A stretch of DNA of 47,920 nt from Ferruginibacter sp. (GTDB taxonomy: Bacteria > Bacteroidota > Bacteroidia > Chitinophagales > Chitinophagaceae), in contig JBDSXS010000087.1 of NCBI GenBank assembly GCA_039926045.1, forward strand, positions 1 through 47,920, given 5' to 3'. The notes under the pieces are model-generated. The model was not told the origin of the DNA, did no database searches, and saw only the letters and a list, made by a program, of their open reading frames with translations. The position numbers and the translations under genes were made by a program. How positions within the stretch are numbered: position 1 is the stretch's first letter; each line of letters begins with the position of its first letter. Positions 3,822 through 38,109 of this stretch are shown here, in pieces.

Positions 3822-5627
3822 ATGTCAACAGTTACAACAAGAAAATACGACCCCATAAAATACAAAACCCCAACCGGCAACCAAATTACCTGCAAAGGAT
3901 GGATCCAGGAAGCCGCCTTGCGTATGCTTTTAAACAACCTTGATCCCGAAGTGGCAGAACGCCCCGATGACCTGATCGTTTATGGCGGCAGGGGAAAAGC
4001 AGCCAGGAATTTTGAGGCTCTTGATAATATCATCAAAGCTTTAAAGGTTTTGGAGAATGATGAATCACTGTTGATCCAAAGCGGCAAACCCGTAGGCATA
4101 CTGCAAACACATAAGGATGCACCCAGGGTATTGATCAGCAATAGCCAGCTCGTTCCCAACTGGGCCAACTGGAAACACTTTGACGAGCTGGAAAAAAAGG
4201 GCTTGATGATGTACGGACAGATGACCGCCGGTAGCTGGATATACATTGGTAGCCAGGGTATTGTACAGGGCACTTATGAAACTTATGCAGCAGTTGCAAA
4301 CACACATTTTAGCCCCCCCGCCCCCCAAGGGGGGAAGCAGGAAATACCTCAATTACAAGAAGGATCTACAAATAATCAAACTCCTGGGGGGGCTTCTTTA
4401 AAACATACACTCAATGTAACCGCCGGGCTTGGTGGCATGGGTGGTGCTCAACCTTTAGCTATAACCATGAATGAAGGTGTTGCTTTAATTGCTGAAGTGG
4501 AAGAATGGCGCATTGACAAACGCATTGAAACAAAATACCTCGACGAGAAATTTACAGACATTGATGAAGCCATTGACAAAGCACTAAGCTACAAGCAACA
4601 AGGGGTAGCCAAAAGTATTGGGGTATTGTGTAATGCGGTTAACCTTTTACAAAGATTGCTTGAAAGAAATATTATTCCTGATACATTAACCGATCAAACA
4701 TCGGCGCATGATCCATTGGTTGGTTATGTACCACATGATATGAGCAATGAACATGCAAACATACTTCGTGAAGGAAATCCTGAAGAATATATTGCACGCA
4801 GTTACGAAAGCATGTACCTGCATGTGCAACTGATGATTCAATTAAGAGATAAAGGCTCAATCACTTTTGATTATGGTAACAACATAAGGGCCAGAGCAGT
4901 GGAGCAGCATGAAAAAATAAACGCCACTAAACCAGAAGGCTCTAAAGTTCCTCCTTTAGGGGGCGGAGGGGGTCTCTTCCCCGGCTTTGTCCCCGCATAC
5001 GTACGTCCTCTTTTCTGTGAAGGCAAGGGTCCGTTCCGCTGGGCAGCACTCAGCGGCGATCCGGAGGATATTGCCGTAACAGACCAGGTGATGATGGAAC
5101 TATTTGCCGATAATAAAAGCCTGATGCGCTGGTTCAAACTGGCGCAGGAAAAAATTGCATTCCAGGGACTGCCTGCCAGGATTTGCTGGATAGGACAGGG
5201 CGACAGGGAAAAAGCCGGCCTGGCTTTTAATGAACTGGTACGCACAGGAAAAGTAAAAGCACCAATCGTGATTGGCCGCGATCATTTGGATACCGGTTCA
5301 GTGGCCAGTCCTAACCGTGAGACCGAAGCCATGCTCGATGGAAGTGATGCTGTTGCCGACTGGCCTGTATTAAATGCATTGGTAAATACGGCAGGCGGCG
5401 CAAGCTGGGTTTCTTTGCATCATGGCGGTGGTGTAGGTATGGGATATAGTATTCATGCAGGTATGGTTATCGTTGCTGATGGAACGCCTGAAGCAGCAGC
5501 AAGGCTTAGCCGTGTATTGCGTAATGATCCGGGAATGGGCATAATACGCCACGCTGATGCAGGATATGATGTAGCAAAAGATTTTGCAAGAAAATTCAAG
5601 CTCGATATTGCTGAGCGGCTGAAGTAA
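3822..5627 (+). CDS. hutU: Urocanate hydratase, with two in-frame repeat-derived inserts
   Basis: [50 protein letters not shown] 3822 is preferred over TTG 3789, which lies inside the upstream hairpin. Confidence 0.97.
4311..4394. repeat. 84-bp palindromic element in frame within hutU
   Basis: Ends AGCCCCCCC / GGGGGGGCT form a perfect 9-bp inverted repeat; exactly 28 codons (SPPAPQGG...TPGGA). Confidence 0.8.
4948..4974. repeat. Right-arm copy of the same palindromic element, in frame within hutU
   Basis: TTCCTCCTTTAGGGGGCGGAGGGGGT matches the reverse complement of 4311-4336 at 21 of 26 positions; encodes VPPLGGGG. Confidence 0.75.
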
Positions 5628-5628
5628 A

Positions 5629-5658
5629 GCCGTGGCGTGGTCTCCGACCAGCCATGAA
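5629..5658 (+). repeat. REP-like element copy 1 (GGCGTGGTCTCCGACCAGCC family)
   Basis: Hairpin TGGTC-TCC-GACCA; copies recur at 5818, 7661, 7713 (inverted) and 9038. Confidence 0.85.
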
Positions 5659-5682
5659 AAGAATAAGTCTCCGGTGTTTTTT

Positions 5683-5778
5683 CCGTGCTTCTATGCCTCT
5701 GTGGCAAACCAAAATTCCCGCAGCGAATTAATTTGCCTGCGGCAAATAAGACTGCCACAGAGGCACAGAAGCACAGAA
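5683..5778. repeat. 9-bp-period inverted repeat hairpin
   Basis: GTGCTTCTATGCCTCTGTGGCA...TGCCACAGAGGCACAGAAGCAC, with inner CCGCAG...CTGCGG. Confidence 0.8.
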
Positions 5779-5817
5779 CTGCCATTATTTTTCCATGTAG
5801 CAAACAAATAAATTTAA

Positions 5818-5847
5818 CGCAGTGGCTGGTCTCCGACCAGCAATGAA
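5818..5847 (+). repeat. REP-like element copy 2
   Basis: CGCAGTGGCTGGTCTCCGACCAGCAATGAA. Confidence 0.8.
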
Positions 5848-5880
5848 GAACAATCTCCTTAATTTTAAAGTCTCCTCCAC

Positions 5881-5978
5881 TTGAACATAGAAAATTGAGC
5901 GTTGAATATTGAATATTCATTCAGATATTTAAAACCGAAAAAATGCTCAATAATCAATATTCAATGTTCAATACTCAT
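5881..5978. repeat. Inverted heptamer-repeat hairpin
   Basis: TTGAA(T/C)A units followed by complementary T(A/G)TTCAA units. Confidence 0.75.
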
Positions 5979-6056
5979 TTACACGTTCCTTATTAGGCTG
6001 TACGTTTGTTATTCCCGCCACATTAGCTTATTTTGTTAATCCAAAACTTTTAGCAC

Positions 6057-7616
6057 ATGAACAAACAACTTTCCTCCCTCATTCTTTTTTTCTTTGTCAT
6101 AAACCTTGCAGCCGCACAGGAAACTGTGGATATGGCCATGATGCAAAAAATAAGAACCGAAGCCAATACCAATTCGCAGGTGGCTATGATCGCCCATAAT
6201 CTCACGGATGTTTGCGGTCCACGCCTCACCAACTCACCGGGCTACAATCGTGCTCTGGACTGGGTTACGCAAATATGTAAAGAATGGGGATTACAAAATG
6301 CCGGCCGTGAAGCCTGGGGCCAGTTTGGAAGAGGATGGCAAAATGAGAGCGGTACACTGGCCATGAAAATGCCTTACTACCAGGATATCACTGCCTATCC
6401 TGTACCCTGGTGCAAGAGTACCAGAAAAGCTGTTAAGACGGAACTGGTCATGCTGGACTACCTTGATTCAGCTTCCATTGATAAAGCAGGAGCTTCTTTA
6501 AAAGGAAAGATCGTGATGATAAAGCCCGGCAGCTTAGGCATACCTGATGCCTTTAAAGCCTATGCAACAAGATATGGTGATACCAGTCTTGAAAATATTG
6601 GCCCAAAATATATGGTTGACCGCAAAATGATGGAAAGCTTTTTACCTTTTGTAAAAAAAGATTACTACACCAGGTTATACCTCGAAAAAATGGGTGCAAC
6701 TGCTTTGGTGATCAGTGGCCGAAACAACAGGGACGGTACCGTATTTGTTGATGGTGGCACCGGTTATGCAAAAGGCTATGAAGCCACTTTACCCGAATTA
6801 AAGATAGGCAGGGAAGATTATTTAAAACTGATGAGGCTTATCAAGGATAATAAGAAAGTAGAAATGGAAATAAATGTGCAGAATAGTTTTTATGATAATG
6901 ATCTTACCGGCTATAACGTGGTAGCCGAAATACCCGGCACTGATCCCACACTTAAAAGCCAGGTAGTTATGCTGGGCGGACACCTCGATAGCTGGGCAGG
7001 CGGCACGGGCGCTACCGATAATGCGGCAGGATGCATTGCAACGCTTGAAGCCATGCGCATTTTAAAGGCGCTCAACATACAGCCACGCCGTACCATACGC
7101 ATTGCCTTATGGGGTGGGGAAGAGCAGGGCCTCTATGGCAGCTTTGGTTATGTAAAAAAACATTTTGGCGATCCCATCAACATGCAGTTATTGCCCGAAC
7201 AGCAAACCATATCAGCCTATTTTAATTTAGATAATGGCAGCGGAAAAATAAGAGGAATTTTTGCACAGGAGAATACAGCCGTACGTGATATTTTTAAAAG
7301 CTGGCTTTCACCATTTGCCGATATGGGTGCCACCGGCGGCGTTACCCTCAGCAATACCGGCAGTACCGATCATATCAGTTTTGATGCGGTGGGCATACCC
7401 GCCTTCCAGTTCATACAGGACCCACTGGAGTACGAGACCCGTACCCACCACAGCAATATGGATACCTACGATCACCTGAGCATTGCCGACCTGCAGCAGG
7501 CCGCAGTAATCATTGCCGCATTTGTGTACAACACAGCCATGCGTAATGATATGCTGCCACGCAAGCCTTTGCCAAAAGCAGAGCGGTTTGTGTTTGATTT
7601 TGATTTTCCGATATAG
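6057..7616 (+). CDS. Exported M28 family metallopeptidase (carboxypeptidase Q-like, PA insert)
   Basis: Signal peptide; GPRLTNSPG, GGHLDSW, GATDNAAG, GEEQGL, NLDNG, TDH, HHSNMD. Confidence 0.92.
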   Translation: MNKQLSSLILFFFVINLAAAQETVDMAMMQKIRTEANTNSQVAMIAHNLTDVCGPRLTNSPGYNRALDWVTQICKEWGLQNAGREAWGQFGRGWQNESGTLAMKMPYYQDITAYPVPWCKSTRKAVKTELVMLDYLDSASIDKAGASLKGKIVMIKPGSLGIPDAFKAYATRYGDTSLENIGPKYMVDRKMMESFLPFVKKDYYTRLYLEKMGATALVISGRNNRDGTVFVDGGTGYAKGYEATLPELKIGREDYLKLMRLIKDNKKVEMEINVQNSFYDNDLTGYNVVAEIPGTDPTLKSQVVMLGGHLDSWAGGTGATDNAAGCIATLEAMRILKALNIQPRRTIRIALWGGEEQGLYGSFGYVKKHFGDPINMQLLPEQQTISAYFNLDNGSGKIRGIFAQENTAVRDIFKSWLSPFADMGATGGVTLSNTGSTDHISFDAVGIPAFQFIQDPLEYETRTHHSNMDTYDHLSIADLQQAAVIIAAFVYNTAMRNDMLPRKPLPKAERFVFDFDFPI

Positions 7617-7618
7617 GG

Positions 7619-7643
7619 TTGAGGTCCCGACCGGATTCGAACC
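7619..7643 (-). other. 3' fragment of a tRNA (tRNA-Cys-like), possible att site remnant
   Basis: Minus strand GGTTCGAATCCGGTCGGGACCTCAA = T-loop, 3' T-stem, acceptor strand and U discriminator. The 5' part of the tRNA is absent. Confidence 0.65.
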
Positions 7644-7660
7644 ATGTGCATCAAACTGAA

Positions 7661-7740
7661 CGCCCTGGCGTGGTCTCCGACCAGCCGGAACCATTAGCAT
7701 ATTCCTATTTGCATGGCTGGTCATAGACCACGCCACGGCG
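7661..7740. repeat. Inverted pair of REP-like elements (REPIN/BIME-like)
   Basis: CGCCCTGGCGTGGTCTCCGACCAGCC...GGCTGGTCATAGACCACGCCACGGCG. Confidence 0.85.
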
Positions 7741-7895
7741 CTCACGGAGTTAAAAGCTGGCTTACGTATAGCCTGGAACACCAACCGAGGCAGAAGGTTG
7801 GTAGATAATTCAGAATTATTTTTTTATTAAAAAATATCACCAGCTATTGCATTATTTAAGATAAAAAATTAATTTACATTATAAAAAAATAATCT

Positions 7896-8213
7896 ATGGC
7901 ATTTTCTTCACAAAGAGCATCGGCTTTAATTGACAAATCAAGGTTAGAATATCAATGCAATCATGTAGTAAATGAAGTCATATACGGAAATAAAAATGTA
8001 GGTGGAAATGCAATGGGATATTTACTGTATGGCGTTAAAGTGGGGAAGCCATCTGCAGGTGTTGTAGTAGTTGGAAAAGATGGAGTTCATGTTGGTGTAT
8101 TTATTAACGATACAGAGTTTATTCATTCGAGTTCTAGTAAATACAAGGTTATTAAAGCCCCATTGTCTCAATTACCTTACGTTTTTCCAAGAGGTTATGA
8201 ACTAAGGAAATAA
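7896..8213 (+). CDS. Minimal NlpC/P60-like cysteine hydrolase
   Basis: Cys (YQCNH) plus HVGVFINDTEFIHSSS, resembling the NlpC/P60 'HVGIY.G...FIHASS' motif. No signal peptide; AT-rich codons. Confidence 0.65.
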   Translation: MAFSSQRASALIDKSRLEYQCNHVVNEVIYGNKNVGGNAMGYLLYGVKVGKPSAGVVVVGKDGVHVGVFINDTEFIHSSSSKYKVIKAPLSQLPYVFPRGYELRK

Positions 8214-8221
8214 TAAAGCGA

Positions 8222-8437
8222 ACACACAACATTACATTTACGCAATTAAGGTTTGGCAGCTTAATCCTCAACATAACTCAACATTCACCATTGGTTCTTG
8301 CCCACTGGTAGCATTGTGTGGCCTTTTTCGTCGTAGGTAGCTACACTGCCGTCTGGGCTTCGACCAACGACGTATCAGATATGTATTTGAAAACAAATCT
8401 GTACCAGGAGTTGTGTATATTTATGAGTTGACAGCAA
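8222..8437 (+). mobile_element. Long attC-like recombination site (complete copy)
   Basis: AAC-8nt-TACGCAA ... TTGTGTA-9nt-GTT inverted architecture directly after a stop codon. Its right ~85 bp is repeated at 11224-11308. Confidence 0.55.
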
Positions 8438-8485
8438 GCAATACATTCAACTCAATAAATTGATTTTAACCAATAACTTTTATTT

Positions 8486-9031
8486 ATGAAATTCTTTTAT
8501 TTTGTTTTAATGATCAGTTGTCTTTCATTTATTTCATGCAATACTTCAGATACAAAAAACAACACTGATGTTCTTCCCCATGCGAACGAAGCAGACGCTA
8601 TAAAAAAAGCAGTTGATGATGCATACCGTGCTATTTGCTTTAAACATCGCCAACAGTTTACTTTTACTGATATAAAAAAATCTTTTATCCCGCAAGCTCA
8701 GTTAGTAAACTTTGGAGATGATACATTACAAGTATTAACAATCGACCAATTCGTTGATTTTTATAAAAAATTTATTGACTCAAACAAGGTTAGTTCATTT
8801 TACGAAGAAGAAATTAACGGAACTACTGATCAATTTGGCAGGATTGCACAAAGGATTAGTTCTTATAATACATACATAAATACTATGGATTCAGTAGCGC
8901 AACGGGGAGTTAATAGTTTTCAATTGGTAAAAACTTTGCAAGGATGGAAAGTGTCGAGTATTATATGGGACATAGAATCTCAGAAGTTAAAAATCCCAGG
9001 CTATTATCTTAAAGTTGATTCCACACGATAA
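8486..9031 (+). CDS. NTF2-like (SnoaL/DUF4440-type) lipoprotein
   Basis: Lipobox FISC; 'FYEEEI...FGRIAQRISSY...RGVNSFQLVK..GWKVSSIIWD'. Confidence 0.8.
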   Translation: MKFFYFVLMISCLSFISCNTSDTKNNTDVLPHANEADAIKKAVDDAYRAICFKHRQQFTFTDIKKSFIPQAQLVNFGDDTLQVLTIDQFVDFYKKFIDSNKVSSFYEEEINGTTDQFGRIAQRISSYNTYINTMDSVAQRGVNSFQLVKTLQGWKVSSIIWDIESQKLKIPGYYLKVDSTR

Positions 9032-9037
9032 ACCTTT

Positions 9038-9071
9038 CGCCCCGGCGTGGTCTCCGACCAGCCGGAACCAT
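9038..9071 (+). repeat. REP-like element copy
   Basis: CGCCCCGGCGTGGTCTCCGACCAGCCGGAACCAT, nearly identical to 7661-7694. Confidence 0.85.
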
Positions 9072-9199
9072 GATCATGTTCTACATAGTTTGCTGAAAAC
9101 CAGGCGATGGCATGCATGACCCGTTTTGCTGTCTCAACATATTGTGTTAATTTGTTTTACAACAGGTAACAACGTTTTGTTACAGATCAAACGACTAAC

Positions 9200-11170
9200 A
9201 TGAAAAAATATGTCCTGCTTACCGTCTTTATCATCTTCATCAATAACTGCTTTGCACAAAATATTATTGACAGCGGGAGTTTTTTCCTGCACAAATTTGC
9301 GCAAAATATTGGCAAAGAAACCTATACTCTAAGTAAGAACGGAAATGAACTTACTTATGATGTCAACTTTAAATTCACCGATCGTGGCTCGCCCGTACCA
9401 TTGAAAGCTAAACTGGTTACCACAAGCAGTTATGAACCGATCAGCCTGTTTATAAAAGGAAATACTTTCCGGTTTTCTGCCATCAACGACAGCATCGGGA
9501 TCAAGAATAAAAAAGCAACCATTTGGGTTGATAGTATTGTGCACAACGAAACTATGAAGCCCATTTCATTTCCGGTAGCCGGTTATTCGCCGGGCACCGT
9601 GCAAATGATCCTGTTGAAGTACTGGAAAAATCACGGTGAGCCTGGAAGAATTACCATGCTGCCAAAAGGTGAAGTAATCATAAAAAAAGACGGAACGGAA
9701 GACCTGGTCTTTAATAACAGCAACCTCGTGCTTAACAGGTATATTATCAGCGGTTTGATCTGGGGTAATGAAATTGCATGGACAGATACTAAAGGAAATC
9801 TTATATGCCTCATCACCAATGATGCAGAAGGTGATAAACTGGAAATGATGAGTGAAGTATATGAATCACTGCTTCCGCAACTCATCAGTAAAGCGGCCAC
9901 TTATGGCATGAAATTATTCAGCAGTTCCATGAAGATGGATCTGGCAAAAAATAAAATACTGGCTATCGTGGGCGGTACTGTGATTGATGTGGAAGGGAAT
10001 AAAAATATTGAAAATGCAGTGATCATCATTCAGAACGGCATCATAACAAAGCTGGGAAGTTCTTCTAACACCAGTATCCCTCCACAGGCAACAATCATTC
10101 ATGCCGAAGGGAAAACCATTTTACCCGGACTTTGGGATATGCATGCACATTTTCAACAGGCAGAGTGGGGGCCTGCTTACCTGGCTGCAGGAGTTACTAC
10201 TGTAAGGGATTGCGGTAATGAATACGATTATATAAATGCCATCAAATCGGCCATTGATTCGCATAAAGGCGTAGGGCCGCTGATCATTAAAGCGGGTATC
10301 GTTGATGGTCCGGGCGCCATGGGGTTGGGTATTGTTCGGGCCACTACAAAAGAGGAAGCAGTAAAAGTGGTGAACATGTATAAAGACAACGGCTTTGCCC
10401 AGATAAAAATATACAGCTCTGTTAAACCAGCCATTGTAAAAGCCATTTGCGACGAAGCACATCGCCTCGGGATCACCGTTACCGGCCATATACCACAGAA
10501 TATGAGTACGCAGGCAGGTATCGATTCAGGTATGGATATGATCAACCACATGCAGTATGTATATACCATGATGAAAAAGAATAAGGACAAATCGTTAGAC
10601 ATCAATGATTCTATGAGTGTGGCAGCCCTTGAATTTCTGAAAACGCATCATACAGTAGTAGATGCAACTGTGGGTGTATATGAAATGATCTTCAGGCCGG
10701 TGAATGAAGACATACGCATTATGGAACCCAATTACTTTAACCTGCCGTTACCACTACAGCAATTATTTACAACTATGGGTATGCCTGCCGAAGCAGCAAA
10801 AGCCAATAAGCCAAGGTTTGAAAGTATGCTGACTCTCGTAAAAATATTACATGATAACGGGATAACCCTGGTGGCCGGCACCGATATGGGTTTCCCGGGT
10901 TACAGCCTGGCCCGTGAACTTGAACTTTATGTACAGGCAGGTTTGACACCCATGCAGGCCATACAAACTGCTACGATCACTGCTGCACGGGCAATGAATA
11001 TGGATAAAAACACGGGCTCCATTAAAGCCGGCAAGCAGGCCGACCTGTTGATATTAGATGCAAACCCTTTGACGGAGATCCGTAACATACGCAAAGTGGC
11101 TATGGTTATAAAAGAAGGGCAGCAGTATGATCCGCATGTATTGCATAAGATGGTGGGATTTGCGAATTAA
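9200..11170 (+). CDS. Exported amidohydrolase family protein
   Basis: Signal peptide; PGLWDMHAH, GVTTVRD, VTGH, AGTD, GSIKAGKQADLLILDANPL. Confidence 0.92.
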   Translation: MKKYVLLTVFIIFINNCFAQNIIDSGSFFLHKFAQNIGKETYTLSKNGNELTYDVNFKFTDRGSPVPLKAKLVTTSSYEPISLFIKGNTFRFSAINDSIGIKNKKATIWVDSIVHNETMKPISFPVAGYSPGTVQMILLKYWKNHGEPGRITMLPKGEVIIKKDGTEDLVFNNSNLVLNRYIISGLIWGNEIAWTDTKGNLICLITNDAEGDKLEMMSEVYESLLPQLISKAATYGMKLFSSSMKMDLAKNKILAIVGGTVIDVEGNKNIENAVIIIQNGIITKLGSSSNTSIPPQATIIHAEGKTILPGLWDMHAHFQQAEWGPAYLAAGVTTVRDCGNEYDYINAIKSAIDSHKGVGPLIIKAGIVDGPGAMGLGIVRATTKEEAVKVVNMYKDNGFAQIKIYSSVKPAIVKAICDEAHRLGITVTGHIPQNMSTQAGIDSGMDMINHMQYVYTMMKKNKDKSLDINDSMSVAALEFLKTHHTVVDATVGVYEMIFRPVNEDIRIMEPNYFNLPLPLQQLFTTMGMPAEAAKANKPRFESMLTLVKILHDNGITLVAGTDMGFPGYSLARELELYVQAGLTPMQAIQTATITAARAMNMDKNTGSIKAGKQADLLILDANPLTEIRNIRKVAMVIKEGQQYDPHVLHKMVGFAN

Positions 11171-11223
11171 ACATTATTGATGAACCGCTTTTGCCAAAGT
11201 ATGTACTTGCATTATTGTCTTCC

Positions 11224-11308
11224 GGGCTTTGACCAACGATGTATCAAAGATGGTATTTGAAAAAGAAATCTGTACCGGGAGTTGCGTATATTTATGAGTT
11301 ATTGGCAA
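11224..11308 (+). mobile_element. Right half of attC-like site (second copy)
   Basis: GGGCTTTGACCAACGATGTATC...CTGTACCGGGAGTTGCGTATATTTATGAGTT aligns with 8355-8437. Confidence 0.6.
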
Positions 11309-11324
11309 CCGCAATTGACATACC

Positions 11325-11846
11325 ATGCGTATCATATCTTTTCTTTTACTGTTGACAATTTCTCTTACCACAAAGGGTCAGACAAAGAACCCATTTCTAA
11401 ATCTTAAGTTTGACAAAGTAGTATTTTATGACTTTGAAGACATTGGCGAAAAAGGCTCTTTAATCGTTGATTATAATGGTAAATATCTTCAAACAATATT
11501 AAAGCAAGTTCAACTTGACACAACGACAATAAAGAAATTGAATATAAAACTTGTTGACAAAAAATCTTATGGCAACGGAACTGCTGCTTGTTTTGACCCA
11601 CACTGCGGATTTGTGTATTTTTTAAAAGGCAAGCCTCTTGGACAAATTACAATTTGCTTAGGGTGCAATAGACTTTATTCTAATATTGACATTCCTGCTC
11701 AAAAGCAAGGAAAGCAAGGACAAGGCAAAGACGCTTATTATATGCTTGACGGACTTAGTAAATCCTTTCGCCAGTTTATAAATGGGCTTCTGAAAAAAAA
11801 TAGATTTGCTCACCAAATTGAACAAGGTTCACACTTTGACGAGTAA
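11325..11846 (+). CDS. Exported hypothetical protein with four conserved-looking Cys (cassette-like gene)
   Basis: Signal peptide; CFDPHCG and ICLGCN motifs; codon usage (GAC, CTT, ACA rich) looks different from neighbours. Confidence 0.8.
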   Translation: MRIISFLLLLTISLTTKGQTKNPFLNLKFDKVVFYDFEDIGEKGSLIVDYNGKYLQTILKQVQLDTTTIKKLNIKLVDKKSYGNGTAACFDPHCGFVYFLKGKPLGQITICLGCNRLYSNIDIPAQKQGKQGQGKDAYYMLDGLSKSFRQFINGLLKKNRFAHQIEQGSHFDE

Positions 11847-11896
11847 AGCGGCATGCCTATATTGGGTTTTATGCAAATCCTTAAACTGCTCATGTT

Positions 11897-12415
11897 ATGA
11901 TAAAATCGTTCTTCATTATGACTATCTTTTGGTCGCTTTTAAGTTGCAACCAATCTGAAAAACGCATAAAAGAAACTGCTAAAACGGTAAACTTTGAAAA
12001 ACTATATTTTCATACCACTTCTTGTGATGGAGCCTGCCCGGTTTATCATGTAGAGGTTACTAAAGATAAAGGAGTGAGACTTTTTGCGGAAAAAATATAT
12101 AAAATTAATGGCACAACTGTTTCTGATGATTCAGGTAAAATGGGATATTTTGTGGGATCAGTTACAGATAGCACATTCAATAAGTTGATCGCTGAAATTC
12201 AAAACATTAATATTGATGCCCTCAGTTTTGATAAAGCAGACTGTTGTGACGGATCAATAACGACAATTATTATTTATTATAATGGTAAACGAAAATTTCT
12301 AAGGTCTATGTTCCCTCCTCCAAAATCTGAAAAATTAATTTCCATATTAAATGATATCTGTGAAAATAGTAGTTGTACTAAAGTGAATGAGCCTTTTAAT
12401 TTAGAGTCGGAATAG
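11897..12415 (+). CDS. DUF6438-like lipoprotein
   Basis: Lipobox LLSC; 'TSCDGACPVY.VEV' motif. Confidence 0.75.
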   Translation: MIKSFFIMTIFWSLLSCNQSEKRIKETAKTVNFEKLYFHTTSCDGACPVYHVEVTKDKGVRLFAEKIYKINGTTVSDDSGKMGYFVGSVTDSTFNKLIAEIQNINIDALSFDKADCCDGSITTIIIYYNGKRKFLRSMFPPPKSEKLISILNDICENSSCTKVNEPFNLESE

Positions 12416-12438
12416 GCCAGCAGTTAGTAATTGATAAA

Positions 12439-12466
12439 TTTCGGTTGGTGAAGACACCAACCGAAA
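12439..12466. repeat. REP-like perfect hairpin / bidirectional terminator
   Basis: TTTCGGTTGGTG-AAGA-CACCAACCGAAA between convergent genes. A related half-site ACACCAACCGAGGC lies near 7778-7791. Confidence 0.75.
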
Positions 12467-12468
12467 CT

Positions 12469-12927
12469 CTAAAATAACCAGACAAATATTTTATAACTTA
12501 ACCAGGCCAAAGCAGCGATAACCAATAAAAGTAAAAGCATTACCGGAAGTATTATTTTCCAGGCACCACCTCTATGACGACCTTCAATATAATGTTCATG
12601 CATAAGCTTAACATTGCGTTGATTGGCTTTAAAAGCAACATCAAATACATCACCTAAAATGGGTATGGATCCAATTAGTGCATCTATCAAAATATTTAAT
12701 GTCATTCTTGCAAGTACAAATCCGCTGGCCCCGTTTTTTGCCAAAACTATAACCATATAACCGGAAATCAGAAAAGTAGCAAAATCACCCGCTCCCGGTA
12801 CCAGTCCAATTATTGCATCCAGACCAAACCTGATATTAGTGCCCGGAATTGTAAATTGCGAATCCATTAATTTTGCTAATGAATCTATATTAGATATTGC
12901 TGATCCGTGATTTGACTTTGTTTGCAT
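12469..12927 (-). CDS. DUF4112 domain membrane protein
   Basis: LMDSQFTIPGTNIRFGLDAIIGLVPGAGD ... IGSIPILGDVFDVAFKAN.RN. Confidence 0.92.
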   Translation of the reverse strand: MQTKSNHGSAISNIDSLAKLMDSQFTIPGTNIRFGLDAIIGLVPGAGDFATFLISGYMVIVLAKNGASGFVLARMTLNILIDALIGSIPILGDVFDVAFKANQRNVKLMHEHYIEGRHRGGAWKIILPVMLLLLLVIAALAWLSYKIFVWLF

Positions 12928-13002
12928 TGATATTTATTTACCTGGAACACAAATACTAACATTATGCCAGATATATTCAGCAGAAAAGATGGGGATAAAC
13001 TA

Positions 13003-13278
13003 TCAGCTTTTAAGATCAACCTGGAACCGGTATTCAAGTAGTTGTTCACCGTTCAGGATCTGCCGCAGAACTTCTGTGGGTTTATCGTCTTCGCTGAGCA
13101 GTTGCAGGTGGTATTGGTCAAATTCCACTTCTATGATTTCGTAAACCCTGTAACCATTATCCCTTCTTTCCCTTACCAGGGAATGAATAGTGATCTGTTT
13201 TCCGCAATCCCGGATCGGCTGCCACATAGTTTTACATTTTAATGAAGAATAATATTGTATAGCGAAATAACGTGCCAA
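13003..13278 (-). CDS. Hypothetical protein
   Basis: 91-aa ORF with protein-like composition filling the intergenic gap; TTG start uncertain. Confidence 0.55.
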   Translation of the reverse strand: MARYFAIQYYSSLKCKTMWQPIRDCGKQITIHSLVRERRDNGYRVYEIIEVEFDQYHLQLLSEDDKPTEVLRQILNGEQLLEYRFQVDLKS

Positions 13279-13328
13279 TGTTCTCCCAGTCCCTTATAGT
13301 GCATTAGTTGCCCCCATTAACAATTGTA

Positions 13329-13401
13329 CTGTCAGGTTGAGCTCGTCGAAACCAGGGCATATCAAATTAACCTGTCGTCGACGAACACAGAAGACTGACA
13401 G
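13329..13401. repeat. Degenerate REP-like inverted pair (TGTCAGGTTGAGCTCGTCGAA family)
   Basis: CTGTCAGGTTGAGCTCGTCGAA ... TCGACGAACACAGAAGACTGACAG followed by T-run. Confidence 0.6.
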
Positions 13402-13533
13402 CTTTTTAAACTGATCTATTTCTATGTCACCCAAACATCATAATCTCCATTATTTTGCAATTTTAAAAAAAATATTTTAACTTAACCATCCTGTTACCCC
13501 TCCCGGCATTTTCATTTTTAAAAAATCATCATT

Positions 13534-14517
13534 ATGAAACAGATCATTTTCTTTTCTTTCCTGGTATGCCTTCTTGCTACAGGCTGTAATAAAACCAATA
13601 ACCCCGAAATGACTACCGTGGAAAATGCGGCAGCTCTAAAGGATCGTACCTGTGCATCTGCAGATATTCTTACGGCACAGCTTGCTGCCGATCCGGGTTT
13701 AAGAGCCCGAAGGGAAGCATTGGAAAGCTTTATTGGTAATGCAATTAAGAATGGTGCGGTTAACAATTTCGCAGCGATAACAATACCGGTAGTGGTAAAT
13801 GTTGTTTATTATACAGCAGCAGAAAATATCTCGATAGAACAGATACAGTCTCAAATAGATGTATTGAATGAGGATTTTAATAAAGGGAACAGCGATGTGA
13901 ATAATGTTCCTGCTATCTACAAGAACCGGGTAGGGGATGTGGGTATCAACTTTGTCCTCAGCTCGGTGGTACGCCGGCAAACAAACCACAAATCATGGGC
14001 CCCTGTTGATGGCATGAAAAAAGCATCAGGCGGAGGGATCGATGCTACGGATCCCGAACATAAATTAAATATGTGGTCTTGTAACCTGGGCCAGAATTTA
14101 CTGGGTTATGCGTATTATCCGGGCACTATTTCACCTGACAGAGATGGCGTGGTGATACTCTATAGTGCATTCGGAAGCAGGGAAAAATGTCCCGGTGGAA
14201 CCTACATTAATAACTATGACCTTGGAAGAACAGCAACGCATGAAATAGGGCATTGGATGAACTTAATTCATATCTGGGGCGATGACGGGGGATCATGCAC
14301 CGGTTCCGACCAGGTTGATGATACACCAAACCAGGGCCATGAAAATTACGGCTGCCCTGCATTCCCAACTATCAGTTGCAACAATACAGGTGATATGTCG
14401 ATGAACTATATGGATTATACATATGATGCCTGCATGTTTATGTTCTCAAAAGGTCAAAAGGCGAGGGGGCTTGCTGTGTTTGCGCCGGGTGGGCCACGTG
14501 TTCCTTATATTCAATAA
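13534..14517 (+). CDS. M43 (ulilysin/pappalysin-like) zinc metalloprotease lipoprotein
   Basis: Lipobox ATGC; cysteine-switch RTCAS; GRTATHEIGHWMNLIHIWGD; Met-turn NYMDY. Confidence 0.93.
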   Translation: MKQIIFFSFLVCLLATGCNKTNNPEMTTVENAAALKDRTCASADILTAQLAADPGLRARREALESFIGNAIKNGAVNNFAAITIPVVVNVVYYTAAENISIEQIQSQIDVLNEDFNKGNSDVNNVPAIYKNRVGDVGINFVLSSVVRRQTNHKSWAPVDGMKKASGGGIDATDPEHKLNMWSCNLGQNLLGYAYYPGTISPDRDGVVILYSAFGSREKCPGGTYINNYDLGRTATHEIGHWMNLIHIWGDDGGSCTGSDQVDDTPNQGHENYGCPAFPTISCNNTGDMSMNYMDYTYDACMFMFSKGQKARGLAVFAPGGPRVPYIQ

Positions 14518-16609: not shown

Positions 16610-18067
16610 ATGAAGAAAGGTTTAACTGCGGTATTCCCAAAAACCCCAACAGGGATTGATGGACTGGATGAAATAACCGAAGGTGGTTTACCACGGGGCC
16701 GCCCCACACTTGTATGCGGCAATGCCGGTTGCGGTAAGACTTTATTCGGGATCCAGTTTCTTGCAAAAGGAATTTCTGTATACAATGAGCCGGGCGTATT
16801 CATGAGTTTTGAAGAAACCAAAACTGACCTGGCAAAAAATGTACGATCGCTTGACATTGACCTGGAAAAATTGATCCAGGAAAAAAAGTTACGCGTTGAC
16901 CATGTAAGGGTAGAACGCTCTGAAATTGAAGAAACAGGAGAGTATGACCTGGAAGGTTTATTCATTCGCCTCAATCATGCTATTGACAGCATCGGTGCCA
17001 AACGCGTTGTACTCGACACCATTGAATCGCTTTTTGGCGGAATTGAGAATACGGTTATGCTGCGTTCCGAATTACGCAGGTTGTTCCAATGGCTGCGGGA
17101 TAAAGGTGTAACAGCCGTGATCACCGGTGAAAGAGGTGAAAGAACTTTAACAAGACAAGGACTGGAAGAATATGTTTCCGACTGCGTGATCCTGCTCGAC
17201 TTCCGCGTGATCGAGCAAATTGCCACCCGCAGGTTACGTATTGTTAAATATCGGGGTTCTACCCATGGTACCAATGAATACCCGTTTCTTATTGACGAGA
17301 ATGGGCTTTCCGTGTTGCCGATCACTTCATTAAAGTTAGAGCACAATATCTCCAGCCAGGTCATTTCGACAGGACTTGACGGACTTGACCAGTTTTTTCA
17401 TAAAGGCGGAGTATTTAAAGGCAGCAGCATACTTGTTTCCGGTTCTGCCGGCACAGCCAAAACAATTCTTGCCTCCTGTTTTGCAAAGAGCAGTTGCAGC
17501 CGTAAAGAGCAAACTTTATATTTTTCTTTTGAAGAGTCTCCTGCGCAATTAGTACGTAACATGCAATCAGTTGGTATTAATCTTAATCCTTTCATTAAGG
17601 CAAAACTGCTGCATATTCATGCTTCCCGGCCATCATTGCAGGGACTTGAGCATCATCTTTTGATATTGTATAAGCTTATCGCAAAACATAAACCCCAAAC
17701 AGTTATTGTTGATCCCATCAGCAGCCTCATCTCCATTGGTTCTATGAATGAGGTCAGGGATATGCTGGTGCGCCTGATCGATCTGTTAAAGACCCATGGG
17801 ATCAATGCTTTTTTTACTTCGCTTACCAATGAGGTCTTTGAAGATAAAGACCTGACCGTAAATGCAGTATCATCCCTTGCTGATATATGGATAAAACTAA
17901 AAAATGTGAACACGGGTTTGAACCAGGTACGCTCACTTCGTATTGTAAAAGCACGTGGTCTTGGACACAAGACAGAGTCACAACATTTTACCATTACCGG
18001 TAAAGGCATATCACTCACTAATGAAAATGAAAAAAGCAGGCAAAAGATCCTGGCTAAAACTGTATAA
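16610..18067 (+). CDS. kaiC: KaiC family double-RecA ATPase
   Basis: [18 protein letters not shown]; Walker A GNAGCGKT and GSAGTAKT; SFEE twice; VKYRG and VKARG; VSSLAD at the phosphosite position. Confidence 0.95.
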
Positions 18068-18074
18068 AATCTAC

Positions 18075-18383
18075 ATGATGGCTAAAGAAAAAGAAATACA
18101 ATACGAATTACGCTTATACATTGCCGGTCAAACTCCAAAATCGCTGGCCGCATTGAATAATATCACTAAATATTGTAAAGAACATTTAGCAGGAAAGTAT
18201 TCTATTGAAGTAATTGACCTGCTCAAAAATCCGCAGCTTGCCGAAGGTGACCAGATATTTGCGATCCCAACACTTGTTCGCAAAGTACCTGTACCCATCC
18301 GAAATATAATTGGCGACCTCTCTAACGAAGAAAAAGTTTTAGTCGGCTTAAATATTCGTAAGCTCAACACTAAAATAATATAA
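18075..18383 (+). CDS. kaiB: KaiB family protein
   Basis: [14 protein letters not shown]...[24 protein letters not shown]...IIGDLS. Start reassigned to ATG 18075/18078. Confidence 0.95.
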
Positions 18384-18384
18384 C

Positions 18385-18696
18385 ATGAAAGAAGCCTCAA
18401 AATATAAATTTGTAGTTGAGGGTACATTGGTATTACAGCTTTATGTTTCGGGCATGTCGGTAAAATCTATGGAAGCCATTGGGAACATCAAACAGCTTTG
18501 CGATGAGCATTTACAGGGTGCCATTGACCTGGAAATAATAGACCTTTATAAAAATCCCGAGTTGGCCATTGAACAGCAGATCGTTTTCAGTCCATCATTA
18601 ATAAAACAATTGCCCCTACCCAAAAAAACATTGATAGGAACTTTTGCAGATACTGAAAAAGTAATAAAGGGTTTGGGTATCAGAATAATAGAATAG
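18385..18696 (+). CDS. kaiB: Second, divergent KaiB family protein
   Basis: LQLYVSGMSVKS...LEIIDLYKNPELA..QQIVFSPSLIKQLPLP. Confidence 0.9.
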   Translation: MKEASKYKFVVEGTLVLQLYVSGMSVKSMEAIGNIKQLCDEHLQGAIDLEIIDLYKNPELAIEQQIVFSPSLIKQLPLPKKTLIGTFADTEKVIKGLGIRIIE

Positions 18697-18697
18697 C

Positions 18698-20401
18698 ATG
18701 AAAGCCCCGTTAGTTGAAAATCTTTTATCTGAAATAGACGAATTAAAAAACCGGCTTGGCGAAGCCGAGCAGCTTATAGAAGCCATTAAAGCAGGAGAAG
18801 TGGATGCTTTTGCTTTCTCTAAAGCTGACAAGCTTGAAGTTTTCACACTTGAAGGTGGTGATTATGCCTACCGTATATTGGTGGAAAATTTAAGAGAAGG
18901 TGCATTGAATCTTTCAGAAGATGGTTTGATCGTTTATACGAACACTTATTTTCATGAGCTACTCCATCTCCCTTATGAGAAAGTGATCGGCACTTCCATT
19001 TTTGATCTTATTCATTCATCATCAAAAGAGGCATTTAACCGGCTTTTTGTAAAAGGTTTGGCAGGGCTAAGCAAGGGAGAAATAACTCTTTGCACCGGGA
19101 ACAAAATAATCCCGGTATATGTTTCTCTTAGTTCCTTATATCCAACATTGCCAACAGTGGGCATGATCGTAACCGATCTCACGGCAAAGAAAAAACAGGA
19201 AAAGATCCTTGAAGAAAAGAATGCACAGCTCGAAAAAATGAATAAAGAGTTTCAGTTGGGAGAGGAACGGTACCACAAAATGGTAAAAGAAGTAAAAGAT
19301 TATGCCATTTTATTTTTAAGTACAGAGGGTATAATTATGAACTGGAATGAAGGCGCACAAAAGATAAAAGGGTACAGCGCAGAGGAGATCATCGGGAATA
19401 ATTTCAGCATATTTTATACCCAGGGGGATAAGGATAACGGCTTGCCCGAAAAATTATTAACTGAAGCAAAAGAAAAAGGTACGGCCAATCATGAAGGATG
19501 GAGGGTTCGCAAAGACGGCAGCTTATTCTGGGGAAGCATTGTAATTACTGCGCTCCATGACCACGATAAAAACATCATCGGGTTTTCAAAAGTAACCAAG
19601 GACCTGACCGACAAAAAAATTACAGATGACAGGATAAAAAGATTCAACCAGGAACTTAAACTTAAGAACGAGGAACTCGAAAAAATGAACAACGAGTTAC
19701 AATCATTTGCTTATATCTCCAGTCATGACCTGCAGGAACCGCTCCGCAAAATTCAAACCTTCGCTACACGTATACTGGAAAAAGAAGAACAAAATTTATC
19801 CGCCTACGGAAAAGACCATTTTAAAAGAATGCAGGTAGCGGCTAAAAGGATGCAAAAACTGATTGACGATCTATTGGCTTACTCACGAACCAGTACAGCA
19901 GACCGGGTATTTGAAAAAACAAACCTGAATAAGATCGTAGAAGAGGTAAAAGAAGATCTGAAAGAAGATATACAGGAAAAGCAGGCCATTATAGAAACTT
20001 CCGACCTGGGTGAAGTGGATATTATTCCTTTCCAGTTTTACCAGCTTATTTACAATATCATTGGTAACTCGCTGAAATATTCAGGCAATGTTGAACCACC
20101 GCATATCAAAATAAAAAATGAGGTCTCCAACGGATTTAAATTCAATGATAAAATAGTTTCTCCACAAGAGAAATATTATCATCTTATCATTTCAGATAAT
20201 GGAATTGGTTTTGAACAGCAATACAGCGAAAAGATATTTGAAGTATTTCAACGGCTTCACGGCAAAACCGAATATAAAGGCACAGGTATTGGGCTTGCCA
20301 TTGCAAAAAAAATTGTAGAAAACCACAACGGCGTTATTACAGCCAGCGGAGAACCAAACAAAGGTGCAACCTTTGAAATTTATCTTCCCCTCATGCAATA
20401 A
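18698..20401 (+). CDS. Cytoplasmic PAS-PAS sensor histidine kinase
   Basis: Two PAS domains; H-box SHDLQEPLRK; N, G1 (DNGIG), F and G2 (GTGIGL) boxes; no TM segment. Confidence 0.93.
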   Translation: MKAPLVENLLSEIDELKNRLGEAEQLIEAIKAGEVDAFAFSKADKLEVFTLEGGDYAYRILVENLREGALNLSEDGLIVYTNTYFHELLHLPYEKVIGTSIFDLIHSSSKEAFNRLFVKGLAGLSKGEITLCTGNKIIPVYVSLSSLYPTLPTVGMIVTDLTAKKKQEKILEEKNAQLEKMNKEFQLGEERYHKMVKEVKDYAILFLSTEGIIMNWNEGAQKIKGYSAEEIIGNNFSIFYTQGDKDNGLPEKLLTEAKEKGTANHEGWRVRKDGSLFWGSIVITALHDHDKNIIGFSKVTKDLTDKKITDDRIKRFNQELKLKNEELEKMNNELQSFAYISSHDLQEPLRKIQTFATRILEKEEQNLSAYGKDHFKRMQVAAKRMQKLIDDLLAYSRTSTADRVFEKTNLNKIVEEVKEDLKEDIQEKQAIIETSDLGEVDIIPFQFYQLIYNIIGNSLKYSGNVEPPHIKIKNEVSNGFKFNDKIVSPQEKYYHLIISDNGIGFEQQYSEKIFEVFQRLHGKTEYKGTGIGLAIAKKIVENHNGVITASGEPNKGATFEIYLPLMQ

Positions 20402-36486: not shown

Positions 36487-38109
36487 TTAATTGGCATTTC
36501 TCCGTCTTCCATTATTTGAGTTTTGCCGTTGGTCATTATCATCTGGGCGCTGAACGTTGCCATTGTTATTAGCTTCGGCCCTGCGCTCCATATTTCTTTG
36601 TTGCTGAGGTGCCTGTCTTTCGTATTGTGGTTGACGCTGTTGCTGTTGTGGTTGACGCTGCTGCTCCATTTGCTGTTGGCGTTGCTGGTTTTGTTGCTGA
36701 CGTTGTTGATCCATTTGTTGTTGACGCTCCTGATTCTGCTGCTGACGCTGTTGATCCATTTGCTGTTGGCGTTGCTGATCCTGTTGTTGGCGCTTTTGTT
36801 CCTGCTGCTGCTGGCGTTGTTGATCCATTTGTTGTTGGCGTTGCTGATTCTGCTGCTGACGCTGTTGATCCATTTGCTGCTGGCGTTGCTGATCCTGTTG
36901 TTGACGCTTTTGTTCCTGCTGCTGCTGGCGCTTTTGTTCCTGTTGCTGCTGGCGTTGTTGTTCCATTTGCTGTTGGCGCTGCTGATCCTGTTGCTGACGT
37001 TGCTGTTCCATTTGCTGCTGTTGACGCTGTTGCTCCATTTGCTGCTGACGTTGTTGACGCTGCTGATCCTGCTGCGGAAAATTATTCTGCTGATCATTGT
37101 TCCTGTTTCCCCTGTTATCATTTTGCCTTCTTCCACGGTTATTGTTATCATCCGTTTGAGGGGTCCTGTTCGCATCCCTTGTTGGGTTTGCATTATTTGC
37201 ATCAGTATTAGCGCCTCTCCAGCGACGGTTATCATTTCCACCATTGTTATTATTATTTGCCTCGTCAGACCTACCGGGGCGATCTATGCTGTTCGGCCTC
37301 CTGTTTTCATTACCCCGGGTATTGTTTGAATTATTTTGACTTCCAACATCGTTATTTCTTCTACCGTTGCCCCCAGGGTTCTGTGAACGGTTATTGCCAT
37401 TTGAATTCCAGGTATTATTATTATTCCTGTTCCTGTTGCGGTAGCTGTCATTATAATCGATCCTTCTTTCCTGGATCCTGTTGCTTGTATACCGTTCAAC
37501 TTCCCTTCTTTCAGGGCCCCTGTAATACCTGCCAACCCTGCCGCTGCCATTGTAATAATTATTGATTACTACGGCATTTCTGAAATTATAATTTCTTTGT
37601 GGAGATACTGAATAGCGATAAAAGTCGCGGTCGCAAATGTTCCGGCGTGGAATGAAATTCCAGCGGTCATATGGTATAGAACCAAATGAAATATTTATGT
37701 TAAGTCCATATCCAAGCGGTGCCCATCCATAATAATCATCATAACTGCTCCAGCTAACCCAGGCAGATGCCCACTCGTAACCCGGTATCCACATCCAGCC
37801 GTAATAAGGGTCATATTCCCACCTTCCGTAATGGAAGGGAGCCCAACCCCAATCATAATCAGATTCCCATGACCAGCCATAATTGGTATATTCCCAATGG
37901 CCATCAGTGTAATAAGGTTTAAAATCGGGTTCATTATATACCCATACCTCCCCATATGTTGGGTTATCCATCCATGTACCATAAGGACTTAATTCTTCCT
38001 GAAAAGTGGAAAAGTTAACATTTACTGATACATCCTGGGCTTTTGAAGCAACCGGCGCAAAGCTGATGATCGCTAAAATCAAAATGAAAGTAAGTTTTAA
38101 ATTTTTCAT
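36487..38109 (-). CDS. DUF6600-like exported protein with N/R-rich linker and Q/R tandem repeat
   Basis: Signal peptide; LSPYG.W, WGWAPFHYGRW, W.W.PGYEW..AWVSW; low-complexity C-terminal half. Confidence 0.88.
   Translation of the reverse strand: MKNLKLTFILILAIISFAPVASKAQDVSVNVNFSTFQEELSPYGTWMDNPTYGEVWVYNEPDFKPYYTDGHWEYTNYGWSWESDYDWGWAPFHYGRWEYDPYYGWMWIPGYEWASAWVSWSSYDDYYGWAPLGYGLNINISFGSIPYDRWNFIPRRNICDRDFYRYSVSPQRNYNFRNAVVINNYYNGSGRVGRYYRGPERREVERYTSNRIQERRIDYNDSYRNRNRNNNNTWNSNGNNRSQNPGGNGRRNNDVGSQNNSNNTRGNENRRPNSIDRPGRSDEANNNNNGGNDNRRWRGANTDANNANPTRDANRTPQTDDNNNRGRRQNDNRGNRNNDQQNNFPQQDQQRQQRQQQMEQQRQQQQMEQQRQQQDQQRQQQMEQQRQQQQEQKRQQQQEQKRQQQDQQRQQQMDQQRQQQNQQRQQQMDQQRQQQQEQKRQQQDQQRQQQMDQQRQQQNQERQQQMDQQRQQQNQQRQQQMEQQRQPQQQQRQPQYERQAPQQQRNMERRAEANNNGNVQRPDDNDQRQNSNNGRRRNAN
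36630..37075 (-). repeat. Coding tandem repeat, ~24-bp unit (D/E/N-Q-Q/K-R-Q-Q-Q-M/Q)
   Basis: Roughly 18 imperfect copies visible in both DNA and protein. Confidence 0.9.

Follow-up and report, generated by a model that had tools for sequence, protein, structure and literature searches.

Relatives of the system

The closest published system to the one considered here is rAID-1 of the Bacteroidales, in which a 5′ XerD-like recombinase gene is accompanied by co-directional genes and integron-like intergenic motifs. Ross et al. (bioRxiv 10.1101/471110) reported it from 226 of 423 Bacteroidales genomes. Our subject is a 47,920-nucleotide stretch from a Ferruginibacter sp. (Chitinophagaceae; contig JBDSXS010000087.1), which we call the window. 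It is contig C87 of the source genome G000 (GCA_039926045.1; 3.2 Mb, 305 contigs, 78% complete); G numbers denote genomes, L numbers loci, C numbers contigs of G000 and X numbers sequencing runs. The window carries two copies of a repeat that ends at the triplet GTT, each shortly before an open reading frame (ORF). These two repeats are probably recombinase-less attI-type landing sites of an integron-like system, with trapped cassettes behind them. By itself, the window is a decayed example of that system. Published systems are compared here as described in the accessible parts of the papers cited.

The criteria for rAID-1 are a recombinase more than 44% identical to BF9343_RS08045, at least two co-directional downstream genes, cargo with a GC content of 41% or less, and immunity genes (10.1101/471110). 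The window likewise has at least two co-directional downstream genes, and the exact core of its sites, described below, also occurs in records labelled Bacteroidales and Prevotellaceae. Compared by description, however, rAID-1 has an adjacent recombinase, immunity cargo and gut Bacteroidales as hosts, whereas the window sites stand alone, recur several times per genome and are followed by other cargo. A scan of 41 ORFs found no recombinase encoded in the window, where rAID-1 would have one on the 5′ side, and no immunity family is among the Pfam matches of the window proteins. The accessible rAID-1 text does not mention attC sites, cassette ends or recombinase-less copies.

Classical integrons, with the CALIN and SALIN elements, are similar in having GTT-N7 heads complementary to N7-AAC tails, a hairpin site after each gene, a tyrosine recombinase and a bias towards folding of the bottom strand (PMC9024848, PMC8618304, bioRxiv 10.1101/2022.09.11.507474). 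Complementary GTT and AAC cassette ends and hairpin sites are found at the level of the whole system; an attI-type site adjoins the recombinase gene, on its 3′ side, in relatives but not in the window. The recombinase of the family differs from integron integrases in its missing I2 insertion and in a score under the integron-integrase cut-off, and its site lies 3′ of the co-directional recombinase gene. The attC-like sites measure about 188 nucleotides, against 57-141 bp for classical attC (PMC12901181), and unlike those have a longer right spacer and stems that appear mostly unbulged. There are several attI-type sites per genome here, against typically one in integrons. The system would work like an integron, but its enzyme keeps it out of that class.

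Two further comparisons concern the sites themselves. Sites called attG have only a GWT consensus, in contrast to the 19-bp core found here. Delta-attI-type cassettes carry an attI fragment in place of the attC, and IntI1 was shown to recombine the resulting attI-ORF-attI layouts (PMC12901181). The layout of the window is similar, but those cassettes lie beside IntI in clinical mobile integrons, whereas ours is chromosomal, has a hairpin of the repetitive extragenic palindrome (REP) type at the junction, and goes with a different enzyme. We found no description of multiple recombinase-less attI-type sites or of 188-nucleotide attC-like sites in Bacteroidota, in a literature search that also missed rAID-1 and left subscription journals mostly uncovered. 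The accessible portions of PMC13616975, PMC9723704 and PMC2864571 do not describe the system.

The repeated module and its recombinase

Positions 8352-8429 and 11221-11300 are 87.5% identical over 80 columns (E 6e-20), and the similarity stops at GTT. An earlier note, made from the letters of this DNA, had reported a repeat of about 85 bp ending at GTT, and this is borne out with shifted coordinates. The left part of the repeat is a decayed REP-like hairpin, and its right part an attI-type end whose core is TTGYGTATATTTATGA-GTT. Both copies lie on the plus strand. Copy a consists of the decayed hairpin at 8331-8383 and the landing site at 8384-8429 (core 8411-8429), with the predicted crossover G|TT at 8427/8428. 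Copy b has its hairpin at 11189-11252 and its landing site at 11253-11300 (core 11282-11300, predicted crossover at 11298/11299). In both copies the core is exact or one base off, while the adjoining REP and attC parts have decayed.

The left 50-60 nucleotides of the repeat belong to the TGGTC-TYC-GACCA hairpin family, eight copies of which surround a REP-associated tyrosine transposase (RAYT) gene on C85. A short palindrome family around a RAYT gene is the mark of REP elements and of REPINs, and it is found for this left part only. The right 46-48 nucleotides are common to the four copies at the M28 peptidase locus of G000 and G012, and they also occur elsewhere without the hairpin, and behind recombinase genes. 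The G012 counterpart of the left hairpin still folds (z -4.4), whereas the window copies do not. Two ideas about the internal boundaries were dropped. A shared CGGGCT..GAC stretch, considered as an attC-internal repeat, belongs to the REP hairpin, and a GTT at the start of the core, considered as a second fixed boundary, is not conserved in recombinase-adjacent sites, while the junctions of recombinase-less modules have no common sequence. The REP family is concentrated at window positions 5628-5847, 7657-7744 and 9038-9116 and around the RAYT gene (G000:C85:19085-21888), and one REP copy lies inside a decayed attC-like site on C161.

A search of G000 for the core TTGYGTATATTTATGAGTT, allowing three mismatches but requiring GTT to be intact, gave six sites, against none or one for the reversed pattern; at four mismatches the census of this genome is noise (13 against 14 in the control). 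The core is present in 6 of 36 genomes of the same genus and in none of 24 from other families of the order. The exact 20-mer was found in at least 114 stretches in GTDB, 80 of them with flanks and nearly all labelled Bacteroidota. Named records that contain a module of this type bear the labels Chitinophagaceae or Ferruginibacter, which fits a Chitinophagaceae host for the window.

The identity of the site is clearest where a recombinase gene is present. In G025 the core lies 145 nucleotides after the stop codon of a 398-residue tyrosine recombinase (P0001) and heads an array with four sites of 188-191 nucleotides. Among the 80 exact-motif loci, five carry a recombinase gene immediately upstream: four of the 65 that have 1.5 kb of flank, and L056. 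As an independent test, 30 loci were chosen by protein similarity alone and six with less than 200 nucleotides downstream were dropped. At up to six mismatches, the core lies within 400 nucleotides 3′ of the co-directional recombinase gene in 13 of the 24 remaining loci, against 2/24, 1/30 and 0/30 control windows; at up to five mismatches the count is 11 of 24, with none in the controls. The tyrosine recombinase that the earlier note had proposed to look for beside an array is found in relatives, although not in the window. The recombinase occurs in 82 of 200 sampled genomes of the family. P0001 has four residues where VchIntI4 (2A3V) has 45, and therefore does not have the I2 insertion; its score against TIGR02249 is 161.6 bits, under the integron-integrase cut-off of 265. 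G000 itself has a broken C-terminal remnant of the gene at C146:248-491 (L236), followed by a variant attI-type site. The end of C146 overlaps C97 by 127 nucleotides, and through this overlap the site leads to a cassette with matched ends on C97. At L077 the usual order is reversed: a recombinase homologue lies on the same strand, 118-936 nucleotides after the motif.

The exact-motif loci also show what follows the core. A complement of the locus's own head together with AAC lies downstream in 26 of 58 loci, compared with a mean of 4.1 (maximum 11) when heads are swapped. An attC profile finds same-strand matches downstream of the core in 15 of 80 loci; two loci have matches upstream of it, and none on the opposite strand. 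The earlier note had staked its cassette reading on there being more than two copies, with a boundary at GTT and a complementary AAC end; that ground for rejecting it falls away, because other copies show both.

Upstream of the GTT end, the palindrome TGAWWWTCA is enriched (41 of 78 motif loci against 10.9). About half of the 80 exact-motif loci have it, mostly 39 or 47-51 nucleotides before that end, positions about one helical turn apart, and it is possibly an accessory binding site. The window copies fit it only at two mismatches. Of 78 motif loci, 16 have the element TAnnTTTG, which we take to be the Bacteroidota -7 box, upstream on the plus strand, and none has it on the minus strand (shuffle mean 5.4). 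No sigma-70-type site was found on the plus strand at copy a. A consensus for integration host factor (IHF) was also tried and rejected: it is exact in 9 of 78 loci, which have related sequences, shows no enrichment at one mismatch (16 against a shuffle maximum of 16), and is absent from the window. No Rfam family scored above its gathering score in 5000-14000, and Flavo-1 stayed below its cut-off throughout G000. At L058, just upstream of the motif, a reading frame resembling that of an ABC ATPase seems by eye to be cut by the core in its Walker A region.

Cassette genes and attC-like sites

ORFs begin 57 nucleotides after GTT in copy a and 25 in copy b. The earlier note had described both as genes for exported proteins; their positions hold, and the export signals were judged by eye only. 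Behind copy b, the unit at 11299-11876 (plus strand) consists of a head, a 173-residue ORF (11325-11846), the tail TGCCTATA (11854-11861) with a damaged AAC, and the 15 nucleotides that are left of an attC left arm (11862-11876). Sequence comparison identifies the 11325 gene as a cassette, because in two other genomes its homologues have the same ends and follow attC-like sites. Its homologues occur in 8 of 300 genomes of the family. Those in G195 (84%) and G159 (72%) follow attC right arms and close with a matching tail with AAC, GCCTATAAC or GTCTATAAC, and an attC left arm, and DNA similarity to the G195 unit spans the whole length from GTT to the tail. Among the others, G337 looks decayed, L173 has an AAC tail and four show nothing. 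An X2 contig carries the head GTTATAGGCA, an exact match to the 11325 tail. The earlier note had placed this gene between a head and a damaged complement with an L-box, and the G195 and G159 homologues and the X2 head strengthen that claim.

Delimited from cassette ends, 24 of 27 attC-like sites of the family are 186-196 nucleotides long, with a few mis-delimited; a generic hairpin detector yielded only 19 candidates, some of them false. In 32 sites (one site skipped) the arms pair mostly at 14-15 of 17 positions. The right spacer is two nucleotides longer, the arms aligning gaplessly at an offset of +2 in 22 of the 32, and no conserved bulge is seen in an ungapped alignment of the arms. G.T pairs number 47 on the bottom strand against 28 on the top, and the bottom strand folds better in 23 of 32 sites. 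Across a seven-sequence alignment, 13 of 27 pairs are changed on both sides. The attC profile has 21 matches on nine contigs of G000 (seven on C68, five on C261, three on C50) and none in the window. The true attC-like sites are hairpins of about 188 nucleotides on other contigs, and the window has only stubs.

One of these stubs likely lies to the left of copy a. The segment 8214-8330 can be aligned with the left half of the C296 attC-like site at a score of 57, which none of 300 shuffles reached (maximum 54); in a control region 54 of 300 shuffles were as good. G012 has a clearer copy of the same layout: attC left half, REP, attI-type end. These two observations suggest that the earlier note likely saw a real attC left half, at 8221-8330 on the plus strand with AAC at 8228-8230, whose own right arm is absent and appears to have been replaced. 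The GC..ATA of the core is in register with the attC right arm. The repeated module itself, at 8331-8429, is not the attC, but an attI-type host site with a REP-like hairpin. Proposed attC stubs at 9115-9199 and 11171-11215 were rejected as unsupported (275 and 148 of 300 shuffles score as well), and a 20-nucleotide AT-rich attC match at 12416-12445 passes shuffles and is treated as weak.

The remaining genes are placed with less assurance. The 181-residue predicted lipoprotein encoded behind copy a (8486-9031, plus strand), with a predicted NTF2/SnoaL-like fold, is tentatively a cassette gene. A REP element (9038-9116) intervenes between its stop codon and a putative decayed tail at 9126-9138, a near complement of the head GTTGACAGCAA with two extra bases before AAC. 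The earlier note had pointed to this complement; the letters are there and are rare by chance (0.16% per 800 nucleotides), but no attC arm follows them. The DUF6438 predicted lipoprotein at 11897-12415 (plus strand) is possibly a second cassette, fused by attC loss: of ten homologue loci, one clearly holds a cassette, which belongs to an array behind the recombinase, and another looks decayed. The 105-residue ORF at 7896-8213 (plus strand), NlpC-like by two source labels, is possibly a decayed cassette. It has no homologue in 250 genomes of the family, and no cassette head was found for it in the window; two of five metagenome homologue loci lie between GTT and complementary AAC ends. By eye, 66-67% homologues of this gene at L196 and L198 sit in cassettes with shorter, GC-richer attC-like flanks, which suggests that cassette genes are shared with classical integrons of other phyla.

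The amidohydrolase gene between the copies (9200-11170, plus strand) looks like a host gene. Three homologue loci in 90 genomes of the genus have neither cassette ends nor the motif, and in G062 the gene adjoins the M28 peptidase gene, the host anchor of the locus (6057-7616, plus strand), behind which the window has a REP doublet hairpin of the TGGTC-TYC-GACCA family (7657-7744). X1 contigs covering 7665-9067 and 9043-12464, and similar X2 contigs, span the gene order of the window; they come from one study that possibly includes the source sample. The earlier note had read the stretch as a decayed array with unusually long attC sites. Integron-like cassettes in Bacteroidota, the G|TT boundary, long attC-like sites, decayed cassettes and the missing recombinase all hold, but the repeated element is not an attC and the stretch is not a single array: it has two landing sites with a host-type gene between them. 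Better-preserved arrays of G000 are at C68:1423-9354, C261:9890-13576, C50:12087-15828, C49:9143-13410 and C97:6588-7443. C49 carries a pair of attI-type sites, 4.2 kb from one another, and behind each lies a cassette with matched ends.

Origin and possible activity of the lone sites

We infer the following course of events. A recombinase encoded elsewhere, now seen only as a remnant, would act on a circular cassette whose attC-like hairpin has folded from the bottom strand. It would join this hairpin to the double-stranded site at G|TT, leaving the cassette gene 15-60 nucleotides behind the site. Later REP insertions and deletions would destroy the cassette's attC and trap the gene, so that the cassette is likely fixed. 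In copy a and the matching G012 site an attC left half runs into a REP and an attI end, as in the delta-attI cassettes of class 1 and 2 integrons, and such a junction is likely a way for extra landing sites to arise inside an array.

Several observations weigh against landing sites with trapped cassettes. The exact-motif locus set was picked by the motif itself, and 32 of its 58 loci show no matching tail within 2.5 kb. No good core match was found at 11 of the 24 recombinase loci. An intact recombinase gene was not found in G000, which is 78% complete. A hidden Markov model (HMM) of the attC left half missed 8214-8330, where the alignment test passed narrowly, and by eye none of eight homologues of the 8486 gene shows cassette ends. 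The variation at C50 described below could be due to homologous replacement or older events, and it is seen in two contigs from one study.

The same landmarks can be read in other ways. That 8228-8429 is an unusually long attC, and the stretch a decayed cluster of attC sites lacking an integrase (CALIN), is very unlikely and, in this form, largely refuted. The AAC and GTT ends are 202 nucleotides apart, near the 188 of the family, the left 110 nucleotides resemble an attC left half, and a partial match of 7-9 bp joins both ends; the inverted letters that the earlier note saw in an element of about 200 bp (AAC, TACGCAA, TTGTGTA and, at 8427-8429, GTT) are all present. They do not make a folded site. 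The folding check that the note proposed for the bottom strand came out no better than shuffles over 8214-8440 (z -0.16; top strand -0.83), the arms of 8228-8429 reach at most 10 pairs out of 17, with the register wrong, and the ends of copy b pair at 7 of 17 or fewer. An upstream arm match as good as copy a's is common: 13 of 75 other motif loci have one, as do 4.6% of windows drawn at random from the genome. The attC profile has no match here, and the right end is sequence found behind recombinases, upstream of arrays. It is harder still to credit the repeat as a promoter or operator module that spread together with REP elements and whose GTT boundary is incidental. The enriched TAnnTTTG and TGAWWWTCA elements and the ORFs close behind would suit it, but the imperfect palindromes of the window would not, and the head-tail complementarity, the position behind recombinases and the divergence at the triplet are all left unexplained. 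A promoter role of the module may be additional rather than alternative.

A more serious possibility, although one we lean against, is that the two copies are dead relics: once landing sites and no longer used, they would be eroded former platforms, or copies made by tandem duplication or REP-mediated recombination. This gives the sites the same identity as landing sites with trapped cassettes, and differs on their origin and present activity. Every attC in the window is decayed, a broken recombinase remnant lies beside an attI-like site on C146, and G012 carries a tandem M28 duplication. In Flavobacterium-type records, eight recombinase-less modules share 93-232 nucleotides with recombinase-adjacent ones, with variable left ends, and two retain the 3′ end of the recombinase gene. 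Against disuse stand the preserved core beside decayed REP and attC neighbours, the intact cassettes behind recombinase-less cores on C49, and the contents of a recombinase-less site, which differ at the crossover among close strains. At that site, on C50, an X1 contig (depth 14, 24 differences in 1604 nucleotides) parts from the reference at the crossover triplet and continues for about 1.27 kb in different sequence; the first cassette is not covered in X1. A contig of X4 departs at the same triplet, while X2 retains the G000 form. The contents of the site therefore vary among close strains. An 18-nucleotide motif from the loose end of the X4 contig is absent from G000 and from the loci.

The M28 locus also bears on turnover. 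Twelve of 19 M28 loci were compared, G000's included, which gives 11 close loci in 10 other genomes. The core lies downstream of the M28 orthologue in two of the ten, and different genes follow it in G000, G012 and G023. Lone sites may have arisen either from platforms that lost their recombinase or from attI ends copied along with differing stretches of DNA upstream of them. For such copying, delta-attI cassettes in class 1 and 2 integrons offer a tested precedent (PMC12901181), whereas insertion of attI1 into the E. coli genome was not above background, which speaks against easy seeding (10.1101/2022.09.11.507474).

A bolder extension of the landing-site reading, which we think doubtful, is a distributed integron. 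One recombinase without the I2 helix would serve scattered attI-type sites in trans, recombine long unbulged single-strand hairpins and seed new sites through attI-ended units, and the 2.9-kb block 8428-11298 would be such a unit with a captured host amidohydrolase gene. If true, this would provide a route for new cassettes and a second solution to single-strand recombination. Acquisition of I2 is the published explanation for recombination of hairpin DNA (PMC7790495). The attI-type core and the 188-nucleotide site provide both substrates for assaying hairpin recombination by an I2-less enzyme.

According to integron surveys, complete integrons are almost absent from Bacteroidetes (PMC9024848), in contrast to the frequency of the recombinase in the family sampled here. 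With several landing sites in one genome, cassettes would be able to disperse along the chromosome and become fixed there. The system may also bear on the movement of Bacteroidota resistance genes. On an Acinetobacter plasmid (NZ_CP041297.1; L239:2543-4660) a recombinase fragment with 47% identity precedes a site that has GCGTATA in register before GTT; after it come tet(X3) and a truncated attC-like left arm. The head and tail of this unit match at only 4 of 7 positions, and L240 has the same gene order.

Elsewhere in the window, a KaiC-family ATPase gene, two small ORFs and a PAS histidine kinase gene lie in one direction at 16610-20401, and a DUF6600 protein gene at 36487-38109 contains an internal array of 21/24-nucleotide repeats (36593-37093).

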